The notes below the pieces were generated by a model. The model saw only the letters and a program-made list of their open reading frames with translations, ran no database searches and was not told the DNA's origin. Below, one piece after another: positions 2,032 through 60,938 of a stretch of DNA of 64,000 bases (position 1 is the first letter of the stretch; every line of letters starts with the position of its first letter). The position numbers and the translations under genes are program-made. The DNA is from an uncultured Verrucomicrobia subdivision 3 bacterium (GTDB taxonomy: Bacteria; Verrucomicrobiota; Verrucomicrobiia; Limisphaerales; UBA11358), in the NCBI GenBank assembly GCA_903884535.1, contig CAISEZ010000067.1, forward strand, positions 358 to 64,357, in the 5' to 3' direction.

Positions 2032-2655
2032 TCATGCTGGATTGATATATTCGGCCAAAAATCCCTGCAACTGCTGGCGCGCGTAAAACAACCGCGAACG
2101 CACCGTCCCAATATTGCAGTTCATCATCTCGGCAATCTCGTCGTGCGACACGCCCTGCACATCATGCAAGACCACGACCATTCTGTGAGGTTCAGACAGC
2201 TTGAGCAACGCCTCGTTCAATTTTTGTTGCAGTTCCGTCAAACCGACCTCGCGCACCGGGGTTTTATCCGAAATCAGCGCCATTAAATCCGGATCATGCT
2301 CGGCATTAAAATCCAGATCATTGAGGCTCATGTGCTGACGATTTTTCCGCTGTTTCAGGAAATTAATCGTCTTATTGACCGCTATCCGGTAAAGCCAGGT
2401 GTAAAATGTCGATCCGCCCTTGAAAGACGGCAACGCCTGAAATGCCTTGATAAAAGATTCCTGCGCGAGGTCGTTGGCGTCCTCGTGATTCGACGTCATG
2501 TGATAAATCGTCGCGTAGATGCGCTGCTGGTAACGCTTCACTAGCTCGTCATAGGCGGCAAAATCCCCCCGGCGCGCTTGCTTGACCAAATCCCCCTCCA
2601 GCATTCCAGCCGGTGTATTGGGGTCAATTATGGGATTCGGTTCGGACATAATCAT
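2032..2655 (-). CDS. ECF-type RNA polymerase sigma-70 factor
   Basis: Region 2 (DLAQESFIKAF, YTWLYRIAVN) and region 4 (VVVLHDVQGVSHDEIAEMMNCNIGTVRSRLFYAR) are present. The start is taken at MIMSEPN (2655), which overlaps the upstream gene's stop as ATGA. The 90-aa N-terminal extension in the ORF track is rejected. Confidence 0.9.
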   Translation of the reverse strand: MIMSEPNPIIDPNTPAGMLEGDLVKQARRGDFAAYDELVKRYQQRIYATIYHMTSNHEDANDLAQESFIKAFQALPSFKGGSTFYTWLYRIAVNKTINFLKQRKNRQHMSLNDLDFNAEHDPDLMALISDKTPVREVGLTELQQKLNEALLKLSEPHRMVVVLHDVQGVSHDEIAEMMNCNIGTVRSRLFYARQQLQGFLAEYINPA

Positions 2656-3701
2656 TGAACCGCCAAAGCCTCGGTTTGTTGCGCCAAATAATCTGTCATC
2701 GCCAGCAATCCGGTTCGACCCGACGACGCCGGGAGCGTCGCCAGGGCTTTCCGCGCCCGTTCCAGAAAGCCGTGAATCGCTTCGACCGTCGGGCCGAATG
2801 TCCGGTATTTCGCCAGCAAGGCGTTCACCGCCGCCAAGTTTTCCGGCTGCCAGTTTTGGATGGAATTTTCCAGGGCAGCGCGTTCCGCAGCGTTGGCGCG
2901 TTCCCAAGCTAGCAAGAGCGGCCAAGTCAATTTGCCTTTGGCCAGATCCGTGCCGAGCGATTTTCCGGCCTCGGCTTCGGTGCCGAACAAATCCACGCAG
3001 TCGTCATAAACTTGGTAAGCCGTGCCGAAGGCGGTGCCGAATTCACGCACGGCCGCACGCTGTTCCGTCGTCGCGCCGCCCAAAAATGCCGCCAGATCGC
3101 ACGCCAGCGTGAACAGCTCGCCGGTTTTCATTTCGATTACGCGAAAATAATCCTTCCGCGCCGCCACGAAATTCCGCCGCTGCTGCGTTTGCAAAATTTC
3201 GCCGGAACAAACCGTGTTCGTCGCCAGCGCCACGGCGCGGCAGACTTCGGTGGTCGGAAAACTCGCCGCGAGCCGCAAGGCCTCGGCAAACAAGCAATCC
3301 CCGAACAGCACCGCAATTTCATTCCCCCATTTCGCGGCGACCGTCGGGCTGCTGCGCCGGACGGTGGCTTCGTCCATCACGTCGTCGTGGACAAGCGTGG
3401 CGAGATGCACCATCTCAATGATGACCGCAACTTTAACGTGTGCGTCGGTCGGCTTGCCGAAACAGCCCGCCGCCAGCGCCACCAGCGTCGGGCGCAAATG
3501 CTTGCCGCCATTGTTCAGCGCGTGCTCGGCGTAGGGCACGATCTGCGGATCAAAGCCCTGCGCCTGCCGCATCAGTTGGTCCGTCACGGCATGAAGAAAC
3601 GGCTCGACCGGTTCCACGATTTTTTTCCAGGAACAAGTCGGGTCGCCATGAGAAACGCGTTCACTGATTGAACCCGTGACATTGATTGCAGCAGCCAGCA
3701 T
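2652..3701 (-). CDS. trans-polyprenyl diphosphate synthase (IspB/HepT-like)
   Basis: Both Asp-rich motifs are present: LVHDDVMDE (FARM) and YQVYDDCVD (SARM). The start is uncertain, either 3701 or 3767. Confidence 0.85.
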   Translation of the reverse strand: MLAAAINVTGSISERVSHGDPTCSWKKIVEPVEPFLHAVTDQLMRQAQGFDPQIVPYAEHALNNGGKHLRPTLVALAAGCFGKPTDAHVKVAVIIEMVHLATLVHDDVMDEATVRRSSPTVAAKWGNEIAVLFGDCLFAEALRLAASFPTTEVCRAVALATNTVCSGEILQTQQRRNFVAARKDYFRVIEMKTGELFTLACDLAAFLGGATTEQRAAVREFGTAFGTAYQVYDDCVDLFGTEAEAGKSLGTDLAKGKLTWPLLLAWERANAAERAALENSIQNWQPENLAAVNALLAKYRTFGPTVEAIHGFLERARKALATLPASSGRTGLLAMTDYLAQQTEALAVQ

Positions 3702-3866: not shown

Positions 3867-4964
3867 ATGAAAAAAACATCTTTTGCCGTGCCCATTTCGA
3901 TGACCGCCGCCTTGGCGTGCGTCATTTCATTGAACCTGAGCTGCGGTAAGAACACGCCGCCGCCGTCCGCCAGCACGGAACCAGCGCCAAATCCCACCAA
4001 CACGAACCCCAATACCGCCGACGCCAATGCCGCTGTGACCGCAACGTCAACCAATCCCGCACCAGTTGCGGTAGCCGAACCGCCGGCCATCACCAATTTG
4101 CCGCTCGCCGCGACCACACCCGTGCCGCCGCCGGCCACACCGGAACCTGCGCCCACCGTGCCGCCGGTCGCCCCGCCGCACCACACCATCGTCGAAATGC
4201 CCGCGACTGTGCCGGTGGCCCCGACCAATTTTTACAGCGGCGACTTCGCCAAAAAAGCCAGTCGCTGCACGCTCGCCAAATGCCAGATGGAAGACGAGGA
4301 TGATTATTTCTCCTTCCTAGTCCGCGCCGGATACCAGCACGTCAATCACGGCGACAACAACGACACGTATTATGTGAGCGCCCGGGTCGCCGTCAACGGC
4401 GACGAACTCCGCGAACACGCCGGCAAAAATGCCTGGCTGATGCCGGACGCCTACGCCGAAATTTCCCACCAATATTTGCCCAAGCCCGACGACAGCAAAC
4501 ATCCCGGCTCCGGCGAAGGCATCCAATTCCGCGCCGACTTTTACTGGCCGTGGATGCACTGGACCAGCCAGATGTTCGCCCGCACCAACGCCGTTTGTCC
4601 CATGTGCCGGCCGCTCGCGCTCGGTTTCGGACCGACCGCCAATATCGGCTTCGACCAGCTTTTCGACGGCAGCCCGGCGCGGCTGGCGCGTTACGCCGGC
4701 GTGCGCGCCACGCTCAACCACGGTTTTATCGAATACGTTGTCGGCGGCACCGACGGCCTGTCCGGCGTCCGCAATCAAGTGCTCACCGAACTGCCGTTTT
4801 ATGCCAGCCGCAAAAACGGCGTGCGCTATTATTTCCGCGGCCTGTGGAACACCGGCTACAACAGCTCGCACGACGAATTGGAAGCCGGGCTGTTTGTGGA
4901 ACTGCCGATTGAAACGCTCGTCTCGCCGTGCAAATGGGGCAGCCTGATTCCCGGCCACAAATAA
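3867..4964 (+). CDS. hypothetical lipoprotein with Pro/Thr/Ala-rich linker
   Basis: A signal peptide with lipobox (ISLNLSCG) is followed by a long low-complexity PT/PA linker and a C-terminal ~230 aa globular region with no recognisable motifs. A strong terminator follows. Confidence 0.6.
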   Translation: MKKTSFAVPISMTAALACVISLNLSCGKNTPPPSASTEPAPNPTNTNPNTADANAAVTATSTNPAPVAVAEPPAITNLPLAATTPVPPPATPEPAPTVPPVAPPHHTIVEMPATVPVAPTNFYSGDFAKKASRCTLAKCQMEDEDDYFSFLVRAGYQHVNHGDNNDTYYVSARVAVNGDELREHAGKNAWLMPDAYAEISHQYLPKPDDSKHPGSGEGIQFRADFYWPWMHWTSQMFARTNAVCPMCRPLALGFGPTANIGFDQLFDGSPARLARYAGVRATLNHGFIEYVVGGTDGLSGVRNQVLTELPFYASRKNGVRYYFRGLWNTGYNSSHDELEAGLFVELPIETLVSPCKWGSLIPGHK

Positions 4965-4980
4965 ATTCTGATTCGCCAAA

Positions 4981-5010
4981 GCCCGGCGGGATTTCCCGCC
5001 GGGCTTTTTT
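4981..5010 (+). terminator. rho-independent terminator
   Basis: A perfect 10-bp stem gcccggcggg / cccgccgggc with a 4-nt loop, followed by TTTTTT. It starts 17 nt after the stop at 4964. Confidence 0.8.
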
Positions 5011-5157
5011 ATTTCTAAAAAATTCACGGATAGCCAGACGAAATACGGCTCGACAACTAGAACGGCCGGAAATACGGTCTAGCTGAAATGAGCCAGAAAA
5101 ATAAAACCAAGGATAGGCTGCGAAGCCCGCCGCCGAATCTTTGTTAGGCCGATTCGT

Positions 5158-5556
5158 ATGCTCCAACGCCAGTTCACATCAAAAAGTTTGCGGTTGGCAT
5201 TGCTAGGAGTCGCTGGCATTGGCATTACACATTTTTACATTTCAGATCTGGCTTGGTGTTTGGGGCTTTATGCCGCGTTGAGGCGTGGCCATGTGACATG
5301 GTCAGAGTTTTTCTATCACGCGACTTCATCCTTTGTTCTTTTAGCAGCTTTTATCATAGCTTTTGTCTTTGCTTGGCGGTTTCGGACATTTGCTGCGCCG
5401 CTGTTACTCGTTTCCATTTTGTCAGCTTGTCTTTGCTTTTATTACGATGCGAAGCATCATAACTACCAAATTCAGACGATGGAGATTGGCACAGGATGCA
5501 CGCATATTTATTTTACTTGGTGGTGGTATGATGACATTCACAATCCGAACAGATAG
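5158..5556 (+). CDS. hypothetical small integral membrane protein
   Basis: The 132-aa ORF has about four hydrophobic segments. It sits in a visibly AT-richer stretch bounded by two terminators. No family is recognised. Confidence 0.4.
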   Translation: MLQRQFTSKSLRLALLGVAGIGITHFYISDLAWCLGLYAALRRGHVTWSEFFYHATSSFVLLAAFIIAFVFAWRFRTFAAPLLLVSILSACLCFYYDAKHHNYQIQTMEIGTGCTHIYFTWWWYDDIHNPNR

Positions 5557-5603
5557 GCATCGGCCTAATTTGAAGATAGGCTGCGAACTAAGCTGGTAAA
5601 ATT

Positions 5604-5647
5604 AAAAAAACGCGGACGGCTTTCGCCATCCGCGCTTTGAATTTTTT
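5604..5647. terminator. bidirectional rho-independent terminator between convergent genes
   Basis: An A-run, then stem cgcggacgg / ccatccgcg (one mismatch), then a T-run. It reads as stem plus U-tract on either strand. It lies 9 nt downstream of the pnp stop. Confidence 0.7.
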
Positions 5648-5655
5648 CGGACGAA

Positions 5656-7806
5656 TTACGCCTGCGGTGCCGGAGCGCCAGCAGCGGCGGCTTCTTCCTT
5701 GTCGCGATCTTCCATCGCGGCTTTGCGGGAGAGACGGACGCGGCCTTTTTCATCCACGCCGAGGCACTTCACCGTGATTTCGTCGCCTTCTTTGACGATG
5801 TCTTCGGTGCGCTTCACGCGGAAGTTGGCGAGCTCGCTGATGTGGACCAAGCCGTCTTTTCCGGGGAGGAATTCAACGAACGCGCCGAATTCTTTCACGG
5901 TGACGACTTTGCCACGATAGATCTTGCCGATCTCGGCTTCGGCACCCATGCCGGTGATGGCGTCCACGGCGATCTTCATGCCTTCCGCCGAAACGGAGAA
6001 CACGTTGACCGTGCCGTCGTCTTCGATGTCGATTTCGCAGCCGGATTCTTCGACGAGGCGCTTGATGTTTTTGCCGCCAGGCCCGATGAGCATGCCGATC
6101 TTCTCGGGATTGATCTTGAGAACCTGAATGCGGGGCGCGTATTTGCTCAGTTCCTTGCGCGGTTCGGAAATGGTCTTGGCCATGTCAGCGAGGATGCTGA
6201 GACGGGCAACGCGGGCTTTTTCAACCGCAATTTCCATGAGCGCGTGCGGAATGCCTTTGAGCTTGAGATCAAGCTGGAAACCGGTGATGCCTTTTTCCGT
6301 GCCGGCGATTTTGCAATCCATGTCGCAATACGCATCTTCCCAGCCGATGATGTCGGTGAGCAACTGGTATTTGGAAATGGTGTCGCCGGAATATTCGGTG
6401 CAGATGCCGACGCTGATGCCAGCGACCGGACGAATCATCGGAACACCGGCGTCGAGCAGCGCGAGCGTGCCGCCGCAGACGGACGCCATCGAGGTGGAAC
6501 CGTTGGATTCCATGATCTCGCTGGTGACGCGGATGGTGTAAGGATAATTCTCGGTCGGAATCATGGATTCGATCGAGCGTTCGGCGAGCGCGCCGTGGCC
6601 GATTTCGCGACGGCCGGGGCCGGTGATGCGGCCGGTTTCGCCGACGGAGAAATTCGGGAAGTTGTAATGGAGAATGAATTTCTTCTCGGTGCCGCCGCCG
6701 GTGTAAGAATCAAATTCCTGCGTGTCGTCGCCGGTGCCGAGCGTGGCGAGCGTGACCGCCTGGGTTTCGCCACGGGCGAAAAGTGCGGAACCGTGAGCGC
6801 GCGGCAAAATGCTGACTTCGCTCGTGATCGGACGGACCACGTCAAAGCCGCGACCATCAAGGCGTTTGCCGCTTTCGAGGATCAATTTGCGGACGGCTTC
6901 TTTTTGGATGTAATAAAACGCGTCGTTGATAACGAACGGCGTGACTTTCTCCGCGCCGTATTTGGCAACAAGCTTTTCGCCGACTTCGTTCTTAATGGCG
7001 TTGCACGCGGCTTCGCGGTTGAGCTTGCCGGGCAGGAGCAACGCGGGGACGAAACGGTCGCCGGCGAGCGCCTTCGCATCGGCGAGGATTTCGTCGGGGA
7101 CAATCTTGAGCGTGATTTCGCGCTTCTTCTTGCCGACTTTCTTGACAAGTTCCTTCTGCGCTTCGATCAGCGGCTGGCAGCATTCCTGGCCGAATTTCAA
7201 CGCCGCAGCAAAATCAACTTCGGAAATTTCCTTGGCCGCGCCTTCATACATGACAATGTCTTTTTCATTGCCGACGTAGATGAGGTCGAGATCGCTCTCG
7301 GCCTGTTCTGCGTGTGTCGGATTGGCGATAAACTTGCCGTCAATGCGACCGACGCGCACCGCGCCAAGCGGTCCAGCCCACGGAATATCGCTGACCATCA
7401 ACGCCGCACTCGCGCCGACGATGCTCAAAATATCGGGATCATTTTCGCCGTCCGCGCTGAGCAGCACGGTCTGCACTTGCACTTCGTTATACCAGCCCTT
7501 CGGAAAGAGCGGACGGATCGGGCGGTCGGTGAGACGGCAGGTGAGAATTTCTTTTTCCGTCGGACGGCCTTCGCGCTTGAAGTAGCCGCCGGGGAATTTT
7601 CCAGCCGCCGCCGCTTTTTCGCGGTAGTCAACGGTGAGCGGAAAAAAGTCCTGGCCTTCTTTCGCCTTGGTGGCGGCCACGGCGGCCACGATGACGATGG
7701 TTTCGCCCATCTGGACGGTCACGGCCCCGTCAGCCTGTTTGGCCAGCTTGCCGGTTTCGATGGTGATTTGTTTGTCGCCGACTGTGGCGGTAATTTTCTC
7801 TGACAT
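5656..7806 (-). CDS. pnp: polyribonucleotide nucleotidyltransferase (PNPase)
   Basis: Full-length 716 aa with two RNase PH domains, a KH domain ([15 protein letters not shown]) and an S1 domain ([15 protein letters not shown]). It has the classic rpsO-pnp arrangement. Confidence 0.97.
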
Positions 7807-8313: not shown

Positions 8314-9735
8314 TTAAACGGCATGCCACGCCCAAACCAGCCGCCGGCGGGTCGCCGGCGTCAGCTTGAACGGCTCGCTGATCCGCAAACCTTCCACCCA
8401 AAACAGCTCGCCCGCCGCCGTGGTCGCCACCACCAACTCACGCCGCCGCTCGCGCGGAATTTTGGCGTTCACAAACAAATCCTGCAGCTTCACCGGCGAC
8501 GGCAAACCAATCGGCTGGAACCGGTCGCCCGCCCGCCAATGGCGCAGAATGATTTCGCCGCCGATTTTGTCCGCGTCAAAAAGTTCCGTGCAGTGGGGCG
8601 AGCGTCCACGCGAGCCGTTTTCTTTTTGGAGCGTGAAATCAAATTCAAGACGGCCAAATCTTGCCCGCCCCGCCCTGCCCGACAATTTTAATTTGATTTC
8701 ATCGGATTTGAATTTGGTTTCAACTGGTTCCAGCAACCGGATTTTTCCCGCCGCATCGCGTGCCACCGACAAACCTGGACCAACACTGACAACCTTCACC
8801 GGCGTTTCACGAAGCTGCTCGATTAGCTCAAAATCTGTTCCGACACCCAGCTCGATCAATTGAAGCTGCAAAACTCGCCGCTGCACCGCGACGGGCAGCC
8901 GTTCAAAAATTTCTTTACTGATGGTGGCAGCCGACGTGAGTCGGCTCTGGCTGTTTTTATGAGCGGACTCACGTCCGCTGCTACCAAGCCATCGCCGCGC
9001 CGCTTCGCCGGCAAACTCCGCCTCCGCGCCGGTGATTTCCATCAGCCGCAAAACGGTCTTGGTCAGTCCGGCCTGGTATTTTTTTTGCAGCAGCGGCAGC
9101 AGTTCGTTCCGAATCCGGTTGCGCAAAAAATCGGAAGACGCATTCGACGCATCCTCGCGAAACTTAATATTATTTTCGCGCCCAAAATCGAGCAGTTCTA
9201 TTTTTGTCAATCCCAGCAATGGCCGGACGAGCGTGAGCTTTTTGTCCACCGGCGACGGCGAACACCATTTCATGCCGGCCAGACCTTCGCCGCCGGCACC
9301 GCGCAGCACACGCAGGAAAAAAAGTTCCACCTGGTCATTGGCGTGGTGCGCAAGGGCGACCACGGAAATTTTCTGCGCCTTGGCCGTGTGCGCCAAAAAT
9401 TCGTGCCGCAATTTGCGCGCCGCCATTTCAATGGAAAATTTTGATTTTGCGGCGTAGGTTTTCACATCCGCGCGGCCGATAAAAACCGGCAGCGCCAAAT
9501 CCGCCGCCGTTTGACGGACGAGTTTTTCATCCGCGTCGCTGGCGCGCCCGCGCAATTGGTGATTGAAATGCGCGACAGAAATTTTCCAGAGAAATTTTGG
9601 CGCGAGCGAATGCAGTGCGTGCAGCAGCACCAGCGAATCCGCGCCGCCGGAAACGGCCACGAGAATTTCCCGGCCGCGCGGCAGCAGACCGCGCGAGACG
9701 ATTTCACTTTCAAGCGATTGAACAAACTGGCTCAC
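8314..9735 (-). CDS. tilS: tRNA(Ile)-lysidine synthetase
   Basis: N-terminal PP-loop [13 protein letters not shown], a TilS substrate domain and a C-terminal TilS_C-like region ([12 protein letters not shown]...[11 protein letters not shown]). Confidence 0.9.
8923..8985. repeat. 63-nt palindromic element (two 25-nt inverted arms, each itself a hairpin) embedded in frame in tilS
   Basis: The left arm is ggtggcagccgacgtgagtcggctc, the spacer is 13 nt, and the right arm is gagcggactcacgtccgctgctacc. The reverse complement of the right arm differs from the left arm at 3 positions, two of which are compensatory. A second, diverged copy lies at 23699-23767. Confidence 0.75.
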
Positions 9736-20689: not shown

Positions 20690-21454
20690 ATGACAACGAC
20701 CGAAGCCGCGCAACTGCTGGACCGATTTCGCGACGGGAAAATCCCGCGCGCAAAAGTCCTGCACGCCTTTCAGGCCGCGCCGGTGGCCGACCTCGGTTTC
20801 GCGCAGGTGGACACGCACCGCGCGCTGCGGAAAAATTTCCCCGAAGTCATTTTCGGGGCCGGCAAGACGCCGGAACAAGTGGTGAAAATCGCGGCCAAAC
20901 TTTTGGAACACGGCCAGCAAGTGCTGGTCACCCGCATCACCGCCGACCATGCCCGCGCGCTCCGGAAAAAATTCAAACGCACCGTCCACCACACCCTCGC
21001 CCGCTGCGTGACCATCGAGAAAAAAACTTTACCCAAGCGCGCCGGCTTCATCGCCGTGGTCTGTGCCGGCACGAGCGATTTGCCGGTGGCCGAGGAAGCC
21101 GCCGTCACCGTCGAAGTGATGGGCAACCGCGTGGAACGCATTCACGACATCGGCGTGGCCGGCCTGCATCGGATGCTGGCGCGGATGGAAACCATTCAAG
21201 AGGCGAACGTCATCATCGCCGTCGCCGGCATGGAGGGGGCGCTGCCCAGCGTTGTTGCCGGCCTCGTTTCCAAGCCGGTCATCGCCGTGCCAACCAGCGT
21301 TGGCTACGGCGCGAGTTTCGGCGGGGTCGCCGCACTACTCGCCATGCTGAACAGTTGCGCCAGCGGCGTGACCGTGGTGAATATTGACAACGGCTTCGGG
21401 GCTGGTTACGCGGCAAGCCAGATCAATTCCTTGGCCACAGATAAACACAGATGA
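20690..21454 (+). CDS. larB: nickel-pincer cofactor biosynthesis protein LarB (PurE-like carboxylase/hydrolase)
   Basis: [31 protein letters not shown] and [16 protein letters not shown] are characteristic of LarB. The start is set at MTTTEAAQ. The last codons and the stop lie inside the CACAGAT repeat element. Confidence 0.9.
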
Positions 21455-21516
21455 AACACAGATTCTTTTGGCTTCTGTAACTTTCTCCCATCTGTGTTAA
21501 TCTGTGTGCATCCGTG
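21436..21516. repeat. AT-rich palindromic element: 3x CACAGAT then 3x ATC(T/C)GTG at about 10-bp spacing
   Basis: Direct copies are at 21436, 21446 and 21457. Inverted copies are at 21490, 21500 and 21510 (the last is ATCCGTG). It spans the larB stop (21452-21454) and ends 17 nt before the larC ATG. Confidence 0.7.
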
Positions 21517-21533
21517 GTTGAAATAATTTTTCG

Positions 21534-22865
21534 ATGAAAACGCTTTACCTCGACATTTTCAGTGGCATTGCCGGCGACATGTTCGTCGCCGCGCTGCTCG
21601 ACCTCGGCGTGGACGCCGGGAAGCTCGAATGCGAATTAAAAAAACTCAAGCTCGACGGCTACCATCTGCACATCTCCCGCGGACAAAAGTCCGCCATTGC
21701 CGGCGTAAAATTTAATGTGCACCTCGCCCATGCGCACGACGACCACGAACATTCCCATGAACATGGCCACCAGCACGGCCATCATCACCATGCGCACGAA
21801 CATCCGCATGGCCACGAGCACGAGGATCACCACCACGACTACCAGCAAAATTTTGCCGAAATTAAAAAATTGATTTCCCGCAGCAAACTTTCCGCGTGGG
21901 TGAAGCAAAAATCCATCGCTGTCTTCCAGCGCATCGCCGTGGCGGAAGGGAAAATCCACGGCTTGCCGCCGGGCGAAGTTCACTTCCACGAAGTCGGCGC
22001 GGTGGATTCCATCGTGGACATCGTCGGCGCGGCCATCGCCCTGGAAATGCTCGGCAAACCGCGCGTATTCGCCTCGCCGGTGGTCGAAGGCACGGGCTGG
22101 ATTCAATGTGCGCACGGGCGTTTTCCCGTTCCCGCGCCGGCCACATTGGCCATTCTCGGCGCGCGAAAAATTCCCATTTCACAATGCGAGGAACCCCACG
22201 AACTTGTCACGCCCACGGGTGCGGCGCTGCTCGCGGAATTTGTCGAGAGTTTTGGCCCGATGGAAAATCTGGTCGCCGAAAAAATCGGCTTCGGCCTAGG
22301 CACGCGCGATAACCAGACGCGGCCAAATGTGCTGCGCGCCGTGCTAGGCACGCAGGCCAAAGCCCAAGGCCCAAAGGCCAAAGCGAGCGTCGCGATGCAA
22401 TCATCTGCCCATTTAGATTGGGAAATGGATCGCATCGCGGTGCTGGAAACGAATTTGGACGATTGCGCCGGAGAAATTCTCGGGGCATTGGTTGAAACTG
22501 CGCTGGCAGCCGGCGCGCTCGATGTTTTTCACACGCCGATTCAGATGAAGAAAAACCGGCCCGGCGTGCTGCTCACGGTTTTGTGCGCCGAAACGGACGC
22601 CGACAAATTCAGCGAATTCATTTTGCGGGAGACGACGGCGTTTGGTGTCCGCAAGACCATTGCGGAACGGCGCAAGTTGCGGCGCGAATTTGCCGACGTG
22701 AAAACCGCTTTCGGCAAGGTCACGGTGAAAATCGGCCGGCTTGGTGGTAAAGTGGTTCAAGTGGCGCCGGAATTTGAATCGGTCAGAAGACTGGCGGCGC
22801 AAAAAAAAGTGCCGGTAAAACAGATATTCGAGGCGGCGGTTCAAGCCGCAAAAAATTTAAAGTAA
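21534..22865 (+). CDS. larC: nickel insertion protein LarC (DUF111 family), single unfused ORF with His-rich tract
   Basis: N-terminus MKTLYLDIFSGIAGDMFVAALLDLG, the His-rich stretch HAHDDHEHSHEHGHQHGHHHHAHEHPHGHEHEDHHHD, and a C-terminal LarC2-like domain. Confidence 0.9.
   Translation: MKTLYLDIFSGIAGDMFVAALLDLGVDAGKLECELKKLKLDGYHLHISRGQKSAIAGVKFNVHLAHAHDDHEHSHEHGHQHGHHHHAHEHPHGHEHEDHHHDYQQNFAEIKKLISRSKLSAWVKQKSIAVFQRIAVAEGKIHGLPPGEVHFHEVGAVDSIVDIVGAAIALEMLGKPRVFASPVVEGTGWIQCAHGRFPVPAPATLAILGARKIPISQCEEPHELVTPTGAALLAEFVESFGPMENLVAEKIGFGLGTRDNQTRPNVLRAVLGTQAKAQGPKAKASVAMQSSAHLDWEMDRIAVLETNLDDCAGEILGALVETALAAGALDVFHTPIQMKKNRPGVLLTVLCAETDADKFSEFILRETTAFGVRKTIAERRKLRREFADVKTAFGKVTVKIGRLGGKVVQVAPEFESVRRLAAQKKVPVKQIFEAAVQAAKNLK
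22356..22383. repeat. imperfect heptamer tandem repeat (GCCAAAG/CCCAAGG/CCCAAAG/GCCAAAG) inside larC
   Basis: Read directly. It encodes AKAQGPKAKA in the inter-domain linker of LarC. Confidence 0.7.
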
Positions 22866-23695
22866 TGAGCGAAGCGAATAACAAACTGGAAACATTGCGG
22901 GCACTGCTGAAAAGCTACGGCTCCTGCCTCGTGGCGTATTCCGGCGGCGTGGATTCGGTTTTTCTCGCGCGTGTCGCACACGACGTTCTCGGCGACCGCG
23001 CGCTGGCGGCCATTGCCGATTCGGCGAGTTTGCCGCGCCGCGAACTGGCGGAAGCCCTCGACATCGCGACAAAATTCGGCTTCCCCGTGCGCGTGCTGCA
23101 CACGCAGGAATTTGCCAACGAAAATTACACAACGAACCCGGCGAACCGCTGTTATTTCTGCAAGCACGAGTTGTTCGAGGAATTGGCACCGCTGGCGCGC
23201 GCGGAAAATTTCGCCGTGATTGCCTACGGCGAAAACGCCAGCGACATTGGCGATTTCCGGCCGGGCGCAAAAGCGGCGGCCGAATTTCAAGTGCGCGCGC
23301 CGCTCAAGAAAGTGGGTTTGACCAAGGCGGAAATCCGCGAGCTATCCGCGCAGCTCGGTTTGCCGACGGCGGACAAACCGCAAATGGCGTGCCTGAGCTC
23401 GCGCGTGCCTTACGGCGAGACCGTGACGCCGGAAAAACTGCGGATGATCGAGCTGGCGGAATATGCGTTGCGGGATCTTGGCTTTCACGACGTGCGCGTG
23501 CGGCATCATGAACTGCAAAAACAAAATCTCGCCCGCATTGAAGTCGGCCCGGCAGAAATGCAAAAATTTTTGACGGACGGCTTTATGGATAAAATCGCCA
23601 GCGCCTTGAAGGAAATCGGCTACGCGCACGTCACGCTGGATTTACAAGGCTATCGGCGCGGCAGCACGAATGAAGCGTTAGCTAAAGGTGTTTAG
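22865..23695 (+). CDS. larE: LarE ATP-dependent sulfur transferase (PP-loop ATP pyrophosphatase)
   Basis: PP-loop VAYSGGVDSVFLA. Three Cys residues are present (NRCYFCKHE and QMACLSSR). The ATG overlaps the larC stop. Confidence 0.9.
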   Translation: MSEANNKLETLRALLKSYGSCLVAYSGGVDSVFLARVAHDVLGDRALAAIADSASLPRRELAEALDIATKFGFPVRVLHTQEFANENYTTNPANRCYFCKHELFEELAPLARAENFAVIAYGENASDIGDFRPGAKAAAEFQVRAPLKKVGLTKAEIRELSAQLGLPTADKPQMACLSSRVPYGETVTPEKLRMIELAEYALRDLGFHDVRVRHHELQKQNLARIEVGPAEMQKFLTDGFMDKIASALKEIGYAHVTLDLQGYRRGSTNEALAKGV

Positions 23696-23698
23696 TTT

Positions 23699-23767
23699 GG
23701 TGGCACCCGGCATCAATCGGCCCAAATCATGCCCGGCAAGTTTGAGCGGACTCACGTCCGCTGCTAC
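23699..23767. repeat. diverged second copy of the tilS-type palindromic element, between convergent larE and the zinc-ribbon gene
   Basis: The right arm gagcggactcacgtccgctgctac (23744-23767) is identical over 24 nt to 8961-8984. The left arm ggtggcacccggcatcaatcggccc resembles ggtggcagccgacgtgagtcggctc. Confidence 0.55.
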
Positions 23768-59354: not shown

Positions 59355-60938
59355 TTAATTATCATCCACACCGAGCGGGTCATTGGCCGCAGCTTTTTTG
59401 GACTTTTTATTTCCCTTCGTTTTTGCGCCCTTTTCGCCCTGGAGTTCGCCAACGATCCGCTTGATCTCCTCGATGGTTTTATCCTTCAGCGGTTTTATGC
59501 CGACCTGGTCCTCCCATTGGGCCATCGCCACTTTCATGGTATTTACGGTGTCGGGATGTTCCGCGGCAAGATTGTGATGTTCGCCAATGTCTTCACGAAT
59601 GTTATAAAGCTCGTATTTGTTTTCATAGATAAAATGAACCAGCTTTATATCACCGTCCATCATCGCCGCCATGGCGGTATTCCCGGTTCCAATTTTCGCA
59701 TCATCAAAATACCAGTGGATGGGTTGCTTGCGCGGAGCGTTTGAATCTCCCTTAATCAACGGCGCAAAACTTTCGCCATCGAGATGCTCCTTGGGCCGGA
59801 GCGGAAGACCGGCAATATCCAGGAACGTCGGAAAATAATCAGTCCCCACCGTGGCACGATCCGTCTTCGTCCCCGGTTTCGTCACGCCCGGCCAATAAAC
59901 AATCAAGGGCACGCGCATGCCGCCCTCGTAAAGCCAGCCTTTGCCGGTGCGCAACGGCTTGTTGGACGTGGGCAGCGGCCTTCTGCCCAGCAGGTCGGAG
60001 GTCGAAAGCCCGCCGTTGTCTGACGAAAAAACAATCACGGTATTTTTGTCGTAGCCCAGTTCGGCCAGGGTTTGGCGAATGCGTGTCACACTATCGTCAA
60101 CACTCTTGATCATCGCCGCATAGACCGGAACATCTTGTTTGAGCTTCACCTTGCCGGTGTAATCATTTTCGTAATCCGGCCCTTCCATTTTCGGCATGGT
60201 CTTGAGCTTGTTTTCAAAATATTTCACATCCTCCGGTTTTGCTTCCAACGGCTCGTGAACTTGATAGTGAGCGAGGTAAATAAAAAACGGTTTACCCGGC
60301 GCCTCGGCTTTGTGCGCCTTGAGAAAATTGACTGTTTCATCGGTCAACCGGTCGGCCATGTATTCCCCTTTCTTTCCGGATTCCAATCCGTAGGGGGCAA
60401 CATTATGGGATTCATTCTTGCCAATGTCGGAAGGCTTGTCGGGCAGATAATACGGCCAAAAATGGGTGGCCAGCGCACCCAAAGCGCAACCGCCTTTGTT
60501 GATGTCAAATCCCCGGTGCTGCGGCCAGTAAGATTCGTCTCCGCCCAAATGCCATTTGCCGGCATAAAAGGTTTGATAGCCATTTTCTTGAAACGCCTTG
60601 CCGATTGTTCCCTGGTCCGCCGCCAAGCCACGCGGTCCCCGCAGTTCCGGGCGGTTATGATTCTTCCCGGTCATGATGGAATAGCGGGACTGGACGCAGC
60701 GCGGCGCGGCTTCATACGCGCGGGTGAACGACATGCCTTCCGAGGCCAGCTTGTCAATTCCGGGTGTCTCATAAAACTGACTGCCCATGAACGTGAGGTC
60801 TCGCCACCCGAGATCATCAATCAAGATGAATACGATGTTTGGCTTGTCCGCGTTCGCCACCGCCGCCGTTCCAGAAAAGCAGGCAGCCAAAACCGTCACA
60901 GATCCAATGGCAATTTTAATCAGTTTATTCATATCCAT
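59355..60938 (-). CDS. family S1 sulfatase with non-canonical active-site motif C-V-Q-S-R
   Basis: PNIVFILIDDLGWRD and GKWHLG are present. The formylglycine position reads APRCVQSRYSIMTG (DNA tgc gtc cag tcc cgc at 60684-60698), with Gln where Pro or Ala is expected. Confidence 0.85.
   Translation of the reverse strand: MDMNKLIKIAIGSVTVLAACFSGTAAVANADKPNIVFILIDDLGWRDLTFMGSQFYETPGIDKLASEGMSFTRAYEAAPRCVQSRYSIMTGKNHNRPELRGPRGLAADQGTIGKAFQENGYQTFYAGKWHLGGDESYWPQHRGFDINKGGCALGALATHFWPYYLPDKPSDIGKNESHNVAPYGLESGKKGEYMADRLTDETVNFLKAHKAEAPGKPFFIYLAHYQVHEPLEAKPEDVKYFENKLKTMPKMEGPDYENDYTGKVKLKQDVPVYAAMIKSVDDSVTRIRQTLAELGYDKNTVIVFSSDNGGLSTSDLLGRRPLPTSNKPLRTGKGWLYEGGMRVPLIVYWPGVTKPGTKTDRATVGTDYFPTFLDIAGLPLRPKEHLDGESFAPLIKGDSNAPRKQPIHWYFDDAKIGTGNTAMAAMMDGDIKLVHFIYENKYELYNIREDIGEHHNLAAEHPDTVNTMKVAMAQWEDQVGIKPLKDKTIEEIKRIVGELQGEKGAKTKGNKKSKKAAANDPLGVDDN

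Follow-up and report, generated by a model that had tools for sequence, protein, structure and literature searches.

A probable RAYT-type REP heterodimer translated in frame within tilS of an uncultured Verrucomicrobia bacterium

How does a palindrome with two hairpins come to be translated within tilS, a gene that is required for decoding of AUA codons? The question is raised by a 64,000-nt stretch of genomic DNA from an uncultured Verrucomicrobia subdivision 3 bacterium of the Limisphaerales (assembly GCA_903884535.1, contig CAISEZ010000067.1, positions 358 to 64,357), hereafter the window. A first-pass annotation, made from the sequence alone, had interpreted the palindrome at positions 8923-8985 as an element akin to a repetitive extragenic palindrome (REP) or a miniature inverted-repeat transposable element (MITE) that landed in a coding linker and was tolerated because it kept the frame. 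The landing in a linker and the tolerance of an in-frame insert are supported by insert-free orthologues, by a dispersed repeat family and by a predicted loop at the site. The element is very probably a heterodimer of REPs of the type linked to REP-associated tyrosine transposases (RAYTs), fixed in frame in the linker of TilS.

Anatomy of the element and its position in TilS

The host gene and the parts of the element, in window coordinates, are as follows.

8314..9735, minus strand: tilS, tRNA(Ile)-lysidine synthase, an intact open reading frame (ORF) of 473 aa with the PP-loop motif SGGADS
8923..8985, minus strand: the 21 codons as first delimited, TilS residues 251-271, a predicted disordered loop
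8924..8984, no strand assigned: REP doublet (REP doublet forming hairpin, REPIN) of family A, 61 nt from GTGG to CTAC, heads outward, a long imperfect hairpin
8924..8947, plus strand: REP unit of the CCGAC subtype, GTGGCAGCCGACGTGAGTCGGCTC, with a GTGG head instead of GTAG, a 7-bp stem and a GTGA loop (8929-8946)
8948..8960, no strand assigned: A/T-rich spacer tggctgtttttat, 13 nt, variable among family copies and among orthologues
8961..8984, minus strand: REP unit of the CGGAC subtype, GTAGCAGCGGACGTGAGTCCGCTC on the minus strand, with the stem-loop at 8962-8979

The interval 8923-8985, GGTGGCAGCCGACGTGAGTCGGCTC-tggctgtttttat-GAGCGGACTCACGTCCGCTGCTACC, consists of two 25-nt arms and a 13-nt spacer, and each arm contains its own 7-bp hairpin (AGCCGAC-GTGA-GTCGGCT at 8929-8946 and AGCGGAC-TCAC-GTCCGCT at 8962-8979), an architecture described in the first-pass annotation and confirmed here by sequence and folding. 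The predicted RNA fold reaches -43 kcal/mol (z = -6.9) and the DNA fold -25.6 kcal/mol (z = -7.0), with none of the 200 shuffled sequences as good; the element is the longest and strongest inverted repeat within the 64-kb window. No Rfam 15 family matched at gathering or relaxed thresholds, generic microRNA-precursor hairpins reaching at most 25 bits against cutoffs of at least 74.

REPs of the RAYT type are characterised by a GTAG head that precedes a hairpin. The minus-strand unit, GTAGCAGCGGAC-GTGA-GTCCGCTC, carries this head and matches exactly the unit that flanks RAYT genes in relatives. The plus-strand unit has one mismatch to the family consensus GTAGCAGCCGACGTGAGTCGGCTC, and its GTGG head is a variant that is also frequent within family A. 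The arms differ at three positions, two of which turn the fourth base pair of the stem from C-G into G-C, so that both arms retain their own hairpin and the long hairpin formed arm to arm across the 13-nt spacer, the mark of an inverted dimer or REPIN, has two internal mismatches. The compensatory nature of these differences, from which selection on structure had been deduced, holds in the sense that each hairpin is kept, but the differences are a fixed, family-wide feature of the heterodimer and provide no evidence of selection on the tilS copy. Because the family unit runs from GTAG to CTAC, the element proper comprises 61 nt (8924-8984); the G and C on its two sides show no conservation across the family. 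Thus, the element is indeed read in frame, but the length of exactly 21 codons given at first reflects the way in which the arms were delimited, and selection for the frame, and not the size of the mobile unit; the net length excess over insert-free TilS orthologues is about 60 nt.

TilS itself is identified by TIGR02432 (184.5 bits against a cutoff of 93.6) and TIGR02433 (29.6 against 20.2), with the Pfam domains PP-loop at residues 24-211 and TilS_C at residues 397-468, and its best PDB match by both sequence and fold is 3A2K (fold E-value 3e-26). In an AlphaFold model of moderate quality (predicted local distance difference test, pLDDT, of 68), residues 255-273 show pLDDT below 50 and no secondary structure, and lie between the helix 224-260 and the helices 275-295. 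This segment fits a loop able to tolerate an insert, and the insert is a hydrophilic, probably disordered stretch of about 20 residues, in agreement with the surface-loop location proposed at the outset. The placement between the catalytic part and the C-terminal domain stands only in part: the insert follows the PP-loop domain and the long helix and lies at the entry to the middle part of TilS, but does not directly precede TilS_C.

Repeat family A in Verrucomicrobiota

The right arm of the tilS element recurs exactly in more than 117 contigs at the least, and the first 80 matches listed come from at least 57 species-level Verrucomicrobiota genomes; both intergenic copies and copies in coding frames are found. 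In 97 of 121 occurrences, the right arm is accompanied by the left arm GTAGCAGCCGACGTGAGTCGGCTC at a distance of at most 90 nt and with the same C/G asymmetry of the stems. These doublets, designated family A, range from 58 to 95 nt in length (mode, 70-71 nt), and their spacers vary. The tilS element is a heterodimer of two REP subtypes of the GTAG type, with CCGAC and CGGAC stems. In relatives, several family-A contigs are present per metagenome-assembled genome (MAG; e.g., TGS_VER2 and MFD05684), and in the source lake metagenome further contigs match the element alone.

The palindrome extends 0 bp past GTAG/CTAC in 67 of 96 family copies. No target-site duplication was detected at the tilS element, where the flanks ...ACTGATG / CAAGCCA... 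contain no direct repeat, or in the 96 family copies; the only motif in the target flanks is an excess of pyrimidines at the two positions that precede GTAG (-1 and -2). Accordingly, the original classification holds for the GTAG-type REP, with the same units flanking RAYT genes in relatives, and fails for the classical MITE, owing to the lack of a target-site duplication. Some doublets (such as those of L009, L010, L022, L036, L077, L092 and L093) form a subfamily whose extended flanks are complementary to each other, ...CCCTGAACC / GTAG...CTAC / GAGGTTCA(C/T)GG..., as though they were parts of a composite unit that measures about 100 nt.

A second copy had been reported in the window, as a diverged intergenic repeat sharing 24 nt with the first, and is real.

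23700..23767, no strand assigned: second family-A doublet, intergenic, with a decayed arm (23700-23723), a 20-nt spacer and an intact CGGAC-type arm (23744-23767)

The intact arm matches that of the tilS element exactly over 24 nt, with 0 such matches expected by chance, and the decayed left arm retains 16 of 24 positions of the family arm. The doublet begins 5 nt past the stop codon of a PP-loop ATPase ORF (22865..23695).

Insertion status and arm conservation among TilS orthologues

In an alignment of 120 TilS homologues (61-100% identity), about one third contain no insert at the site (e.g., ...AAWLAK-PEMAFEELP...), as expected of a lineage-specific insertion. The nearest REP-free homologue, at 77% identity, has a short GCGGAAA-type sequence there, and a related tilS contig co-occurring in the source lake metagenome has 26 nt at the site versus 86 nt in the window. 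An orthologue of 81% identity contains the same element at the same position, so the insertion predates that split.

Between this orthologue and the window, the arms are identical at 48 of 48 positions, including 16 of 16 third codon positions, compared with 8 of 13 positions in the spacer, 84% in the whole gene and 75% at third positions elsewhere. Hence the arms have been kept constant at the nucleotide level, which could be due to selection tied to the family or to gene conversion from other copies. The same identity, along with the very stable RNA fold and the presence of some palindromic insert at this site in most lineages, would also agree with a role of the hairpin in tilS itself, whether by slowing ribosomes between the two halves of TilS, by setting mRNA stability or by binding a host protein as DNA. 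Such a role seems improbable because the 24-nt units show the same invariance at more than 100 unrelated sites, most of them intergenic, and beside RAYT genes, which implies that the constraint belongs to the family and not to tilS. Furthermore, the insert is missing from about a third of the orthologues, its arms have decayed in the tilS of L119 (about 8 mismatches), other species have unrelated sequences at this site, and Rfam offers no match.

Three further, independent metagenome assemblies contain tilS DNA identical to that of the window, a 2.6-kb Logan contig spans the tilS region without a single difference, and in two additional samples the 81%-identical orthologue carries the element at this very position. 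These observations render hardly credible an assembly or binning artefact in which a repeat was collapsed into the tilS contig, even though REP-flanked regions do break assemblies and many RAYT contigs do not exceed about 1 kb. Strain-level presence/absence polymorphism, envisaged in the first-pass annotation, was not seen, the four assemblies being identical in DNA.

A RAYT linked to family A

At two loci, L064 and L083, clusters of family-A units surround a 204-aa ORF that contains an HUH motif (MPDHIHLVW) and a tyrosine motif (VCFYIMDNARKDGLV). One CGGAC-type unit is located 7-9 nt before the ATG and a doublet 3-4 nt past the stop codon. The encoded protein matches the NCBIfam model NF047646, REP-associated tyrosine transposase, with an E-value of 8e-11 over model positions 7-146 of 146. 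A single-sequence phmmer search against PDB gave nothing meaningful, so that a profile was needed; with a 24-sequence RAYT profile, the top match was 4ER8, E. coli TnpA-REP (E-value 2.7e-4, HUH and Tyr aligned), followed by ISDra2 TnpA. Many homologues are named RayT in the Joint Genome Institute (JGI) annotation. On the strength of these motifs and profile matches, the ORF is assigned to the RAYT branch of the HUH/Y1 (IS200-like) superfamily.

Among 76 RAYT loci, the flanking REP tracks the RAYT clade. RAYTs of at least 82% identity are flanked by family A, with family-A units at both ends in 11 loci; those of 61-65% identity are flanked by GTAGCAGCCGACGTGAGGAGGCTC, those of 53-59% identity by the GTAGCCGCG... 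types, and the loci L243 and L211 by GTAGGAGAC... This co-variation is the strongest evidence that the REPs and RAYTs are cognate. At many RAYT loci (L210-L233 among others), the GTAG head of the downstream REP supplies the stop codon TAG of the RAYT, so that the gene terminates within its own recognition repeat.

In L064 (positions 4380-6200; JAHCLO010000072.1) and L083 (positions 2200-3120), the RAYT and its flanking REPs are found where a gene for a UbiD-like decarboxylase has its 3' end. L064 has a tandem duplication of the RAYT, together with three copies of a piece of ubiD, about 50 codons long, from the 3' end of that gene. The first RAYT candidates considered, in the stretches enclosed by paired elements of L014 and L022, were rejected because ordinary genes (oxidoreductase and thiG) are found there. 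Several MAGs with Verrucomicrobiota-type REPs, TilS and RAYT are labelled Bifidobacteriaceae, Klebsiella, Methylomirabilota, Acidiferrales or Chitinophaga; these labels are probably wrong.

In-frame copies in other proteins

A census of ORFs around the 121 family-A copies that required at least 60 aa open on both sides retained 43 copies, a threshold too lax for GC-rich genomes; it was raised to at least 140 aa, followed by a Pfam check of the ORFs. At this threshold, 23 of 121 copies lie in stop-free stretches, and all 17 ORFs tested with Pfam are real proteins with domains on both sides of the element or spanning it. Hence at least 14% of the sampled copies (17/121) are intragenic. The hosts are UvrA (two inserts), MutS (two inserts), an HrpB-like helicase, MurG, NadE, GcvT, HsdM, a radical-SAM CofH/MqnE-like enzyme, a Ser/Thr kinase, a transporter of the major facilitator superfamily and several others. 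The MutS insert of L041 is not present in 24 other MutS sequences; since MutS is so conserved that the 80 loci returned were mostly from distant phyla, this comparison bears only on the lineage-specificity of the L041 insert. The orthologous Ser/Thr kinase genes of L052 and L058 carry in-frame inserts of different families (D and A) at one and the same nucleotide, between the kinase motifs ...LNHPGIVTL(Y/F)EF and FFLMEFVDG.

The alternative that the TilS insert is an ordinary lineage-specific linker peptide under protein-level selection, for example for contact with tRNA, with the palindrome incidental, would accord with the hydrophilic character of the peptide and with its position, presumably close to where the tRNA-holding domains of the 3A2K complex meet. 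This possibility is effectively refuted by the nucleotide sequence, which is an exact member of a dispersed repeat family with 0 matches expected by chance, by the invariance of synonymous positions in the arms, by the absence of the peptide from many orthologues, and by the translation of the element in other frames in other proteins (e.g., VAADVSPL).

Some proteins contain two or more in-frame palindromic inserts (UvrA of L005, MutS of L041, the kinases of L052 and L113, and the helicase of L021), sometimes from different families and in different frames (e.g., VAADVSRL..., GRADLPVS... and AVCDRRGGDAHRAPLQ). A 42-aa tandem query composed of two REP-peptide variants had no match in a collection of 5.8 billion proteins.

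Recurrent occupation of the tilS site

The linker is the only major internal indel site in the alignment of the 120 proteins (P0001-P0120). Depending on the species, the site (L118-L187 and others) contains a member of one of at least six palindromic families, heptamer repeats or nothing. The occupants are distributed as follows.

Family A: the window, L275 and L119
Family B, GTAGGAGACGAGGTGACGAGTCTC: L121 and L129, with a hybrid doublet in L118
Family C, GGGAGCGCCGGCATCCTGCCGGC: L125 and L128
Family D, GGTAGGGCCGACCTGC...GCGTCCCTACC: L126, L137, L155 and L172
Families E and F: L127 and L132 (E), L154 (F)
In-frame heptamer repeats: L131, L133 and L177; proteins P0004, P0080 and others

The heptamer arrays are (GCGGAAA)n, read as KSGKRKAESG, or (AAATCGA)n, and the GCGGAAA array also serves as the spacer of family-B doublets. 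In a 7-nt repeat within an essential gene, slippage by one unit would shift the frame.

On a neighbour-joining tree of the 120 TilS sequences, at least 38 changes of insert class are required, compared with a mean of 69 and a minimum of 60 for shuffled labels; the value of 38 is likely an overestimate because the tree is weakly resolved at this divergence. Families A and B begin at the same nucleotide, 4 nt past a Trp codon. It is conceivable, though less likely than not, that the tilS linker and comparable sites in other genes are reusable landing pads where REP doublets of different RAYT-linked families replace one another; the RAYT might target either the pyrimidine-rich flank or the GTAG/CTAC ends of an element already in place. 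Alternatively, a single, uniquely permissive loop under a heavy flux of random insertions fits as well, with the frame constraint giving the coincident junctions. If the landing-pad notion is correct, the REPINs within coding regions of these Verrucomicrobia behave as cassettes that are exchanged over time. In either case, the recurrent occupation of this site by different repeat families may be a new observation.

Proposed origin of the insert

Under the preferred reading, a RAYT-type REP heterodimer fixed in frame in the TilS linker, the doublet is a non-autonomous element of a kind whose families depend on a single-copy HUH/Y1 RAYT for mobilisation in trans, as presumably in the window organism too. 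To our knowledge, mobilisation in vivo has not been demonstrated for most REPINs. By analogy with E. coli TnpA-REP and the IS200/IS605 elements, the RAYT would bind the REP hairpin in single-stranded DNA, cut beside the tetranucleotide head and leave no target duplication. One copy would have inserted into the linker, after the long helix behind the PP-loop domain, in the ancestor shared with the 81%-identical orthologue. Since tilS is needed to decode AUA, survival would have required a frame-keeping, stop-free insertion; of the three frames of each arm, one contains stops (TAG and TGA). Today the element is simply translated as an insert of about 20 residues that is probably neutral for TilS function.

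Several observations weigh against this account. The perfect conservation of the arms in coding DNA is not what a purely neutral passenger would show, and calls for selection on DNA or RNA or for gene conversion from other copies. The 61 nt of the unit are not a multiple of three, so the original event must have included an adjustment of 1-2 nt that is not reconstructable. The window holds only two family-A loci in 64 kb, and the copy number in this genome may thus be modest. A tblastn search of the 64-kb window found no RAYT, and the cognate RAYT is known from relatives only; the weak match at 60446-60526 is spurious and falls in a sulfatase gene. The RAYT assignment itself is below formal thresholds, with 42 bits for NF047646 against an equivalog cutoff of 80, and, for a single RAYT sequence, 17.6 bits (E-value 0.004) for the Pfam family Y1_Tnp against a cutoff of 23.

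The affected proteins include the core enzymes TilS, MutS, UvrA, MurG and NadE, and the unexplained low-complexity inserts of 20-30 residues that gene callers and homology tools will show in Verrucomicrobiota MAGs become recognisable; REP elements also break assemblies around RAYT genes. The reuse of the tilS site and the intact arms in coding DNA provide a natural data set on the choice of targets by REPINs and on the preservation of their arms.

Apart from family A, the window contains an unrelated A/T-rich inverted repeat at 21435-21517, CCACAGATAAACACAGATG ... CATCTGTGTTAATCTGTG, with arms of 18-21 nt that are 81-94% complementary.

Comparison with known systems

The closest known counterparts are the intragenic dimers of GTAG-tagged REPs, notably those of the verrucomicrobium Opitutus terrae, which have a GTGG head variant, a stem of 6-9 bp and inverted dimers that form one large hairpin (Di Nocera, De Gregorio and Rocco 2013, BMC Genomics 14:522, PMC3733652). 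The same study describes heterodimers whose partners differ in stem bases, RAYT genes flanked by REPs ('REPtrons'), REP dimers inside ORFs that encode 20-30 aa and are most numerous in O. terrae, and intragenic REPs that are often found in repair genes, with uvrA hit twice. The elements described here are similar in the head, the stem, the heterodimer, the reading within ORFs and the RAYT flanking, and uvrA is hit twice in L005 as well. They differ in the stem and loop sequences and in the host, an uncultured Limisphaerales/Pedosphaerales-like lineage; the strings SAAT, GRESA and ADVS are not in the peptide table of PMC3733652, tilS is not among the genes listed there, and for repeated use of a single site by many families there is no more than a hint, for Xanthomonas recB.

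In the REPIN-RAYT system of Pseudomonas fluorescens SBW25 (Bertels and Rainey 2011, PMC3116915), the replicating unit likewise consists of a spacer between two inverted REPs, and a single REP-flanked RAYT, vertical persistence, conserved arms and a variable spacer are further shared traits. The Pseudomonas REPINs are described as extragenic (PMC3116915), unlike family A, in which at least 14% of the sampled copies are translated in frame, and the RAYT linked to family A is only distantly related.

The bacterial interspersed mosaic elements (BIMEs) of E. coli, with their Y/Z REP pairs, are similarly inverted mosaic pairs of two REP subtypes, and TnpA-REP is an HUH/Y1 enzyme that recognises a hairpin together with GTAG, its structure 4ER8 being the best structural-database relative of the RAYT. 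The homology is remote (E-value 2.7e-4 with the profile), and the stem sequences are different. E. coli REPs are not known to be translated into protein.

The Rickettsia palindromic elements (RPEs; cited in PMC3733652) resemble the tilS element in that a palindromic repeat is read in frame in housekeeping genes as a tolerated surface segment. By contrast, RPE-1 is longer, RPE-4 and RPE-6 carry CGTC tags, and the RPEs have no dedicated transposase known, are unrelated in sequence and belong to another phylum. Membership of the tilS element in the RPEs was rejected on account of phylum, sequence, the GTAG head and the link to a RAYT; the likeness is one of behaviour only.

In-frame palindromes of Rickettsia have been in the literature since 2000 and intragenic dimers of GTAG-REPs since 2013, and the basic phenomenon, in-frame intragenic REP dimers in Verrucomicrobia, is already published (PMC3733652). 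Because the tables of that study contain neither tilS nor the family-A peptides, the window element is not among the REPs described, although its kind is known; it adds a well-documented case and a new REP family, with its RAYT, to the few bacterial lineages that routinely write selfish palindromes into their proteins.

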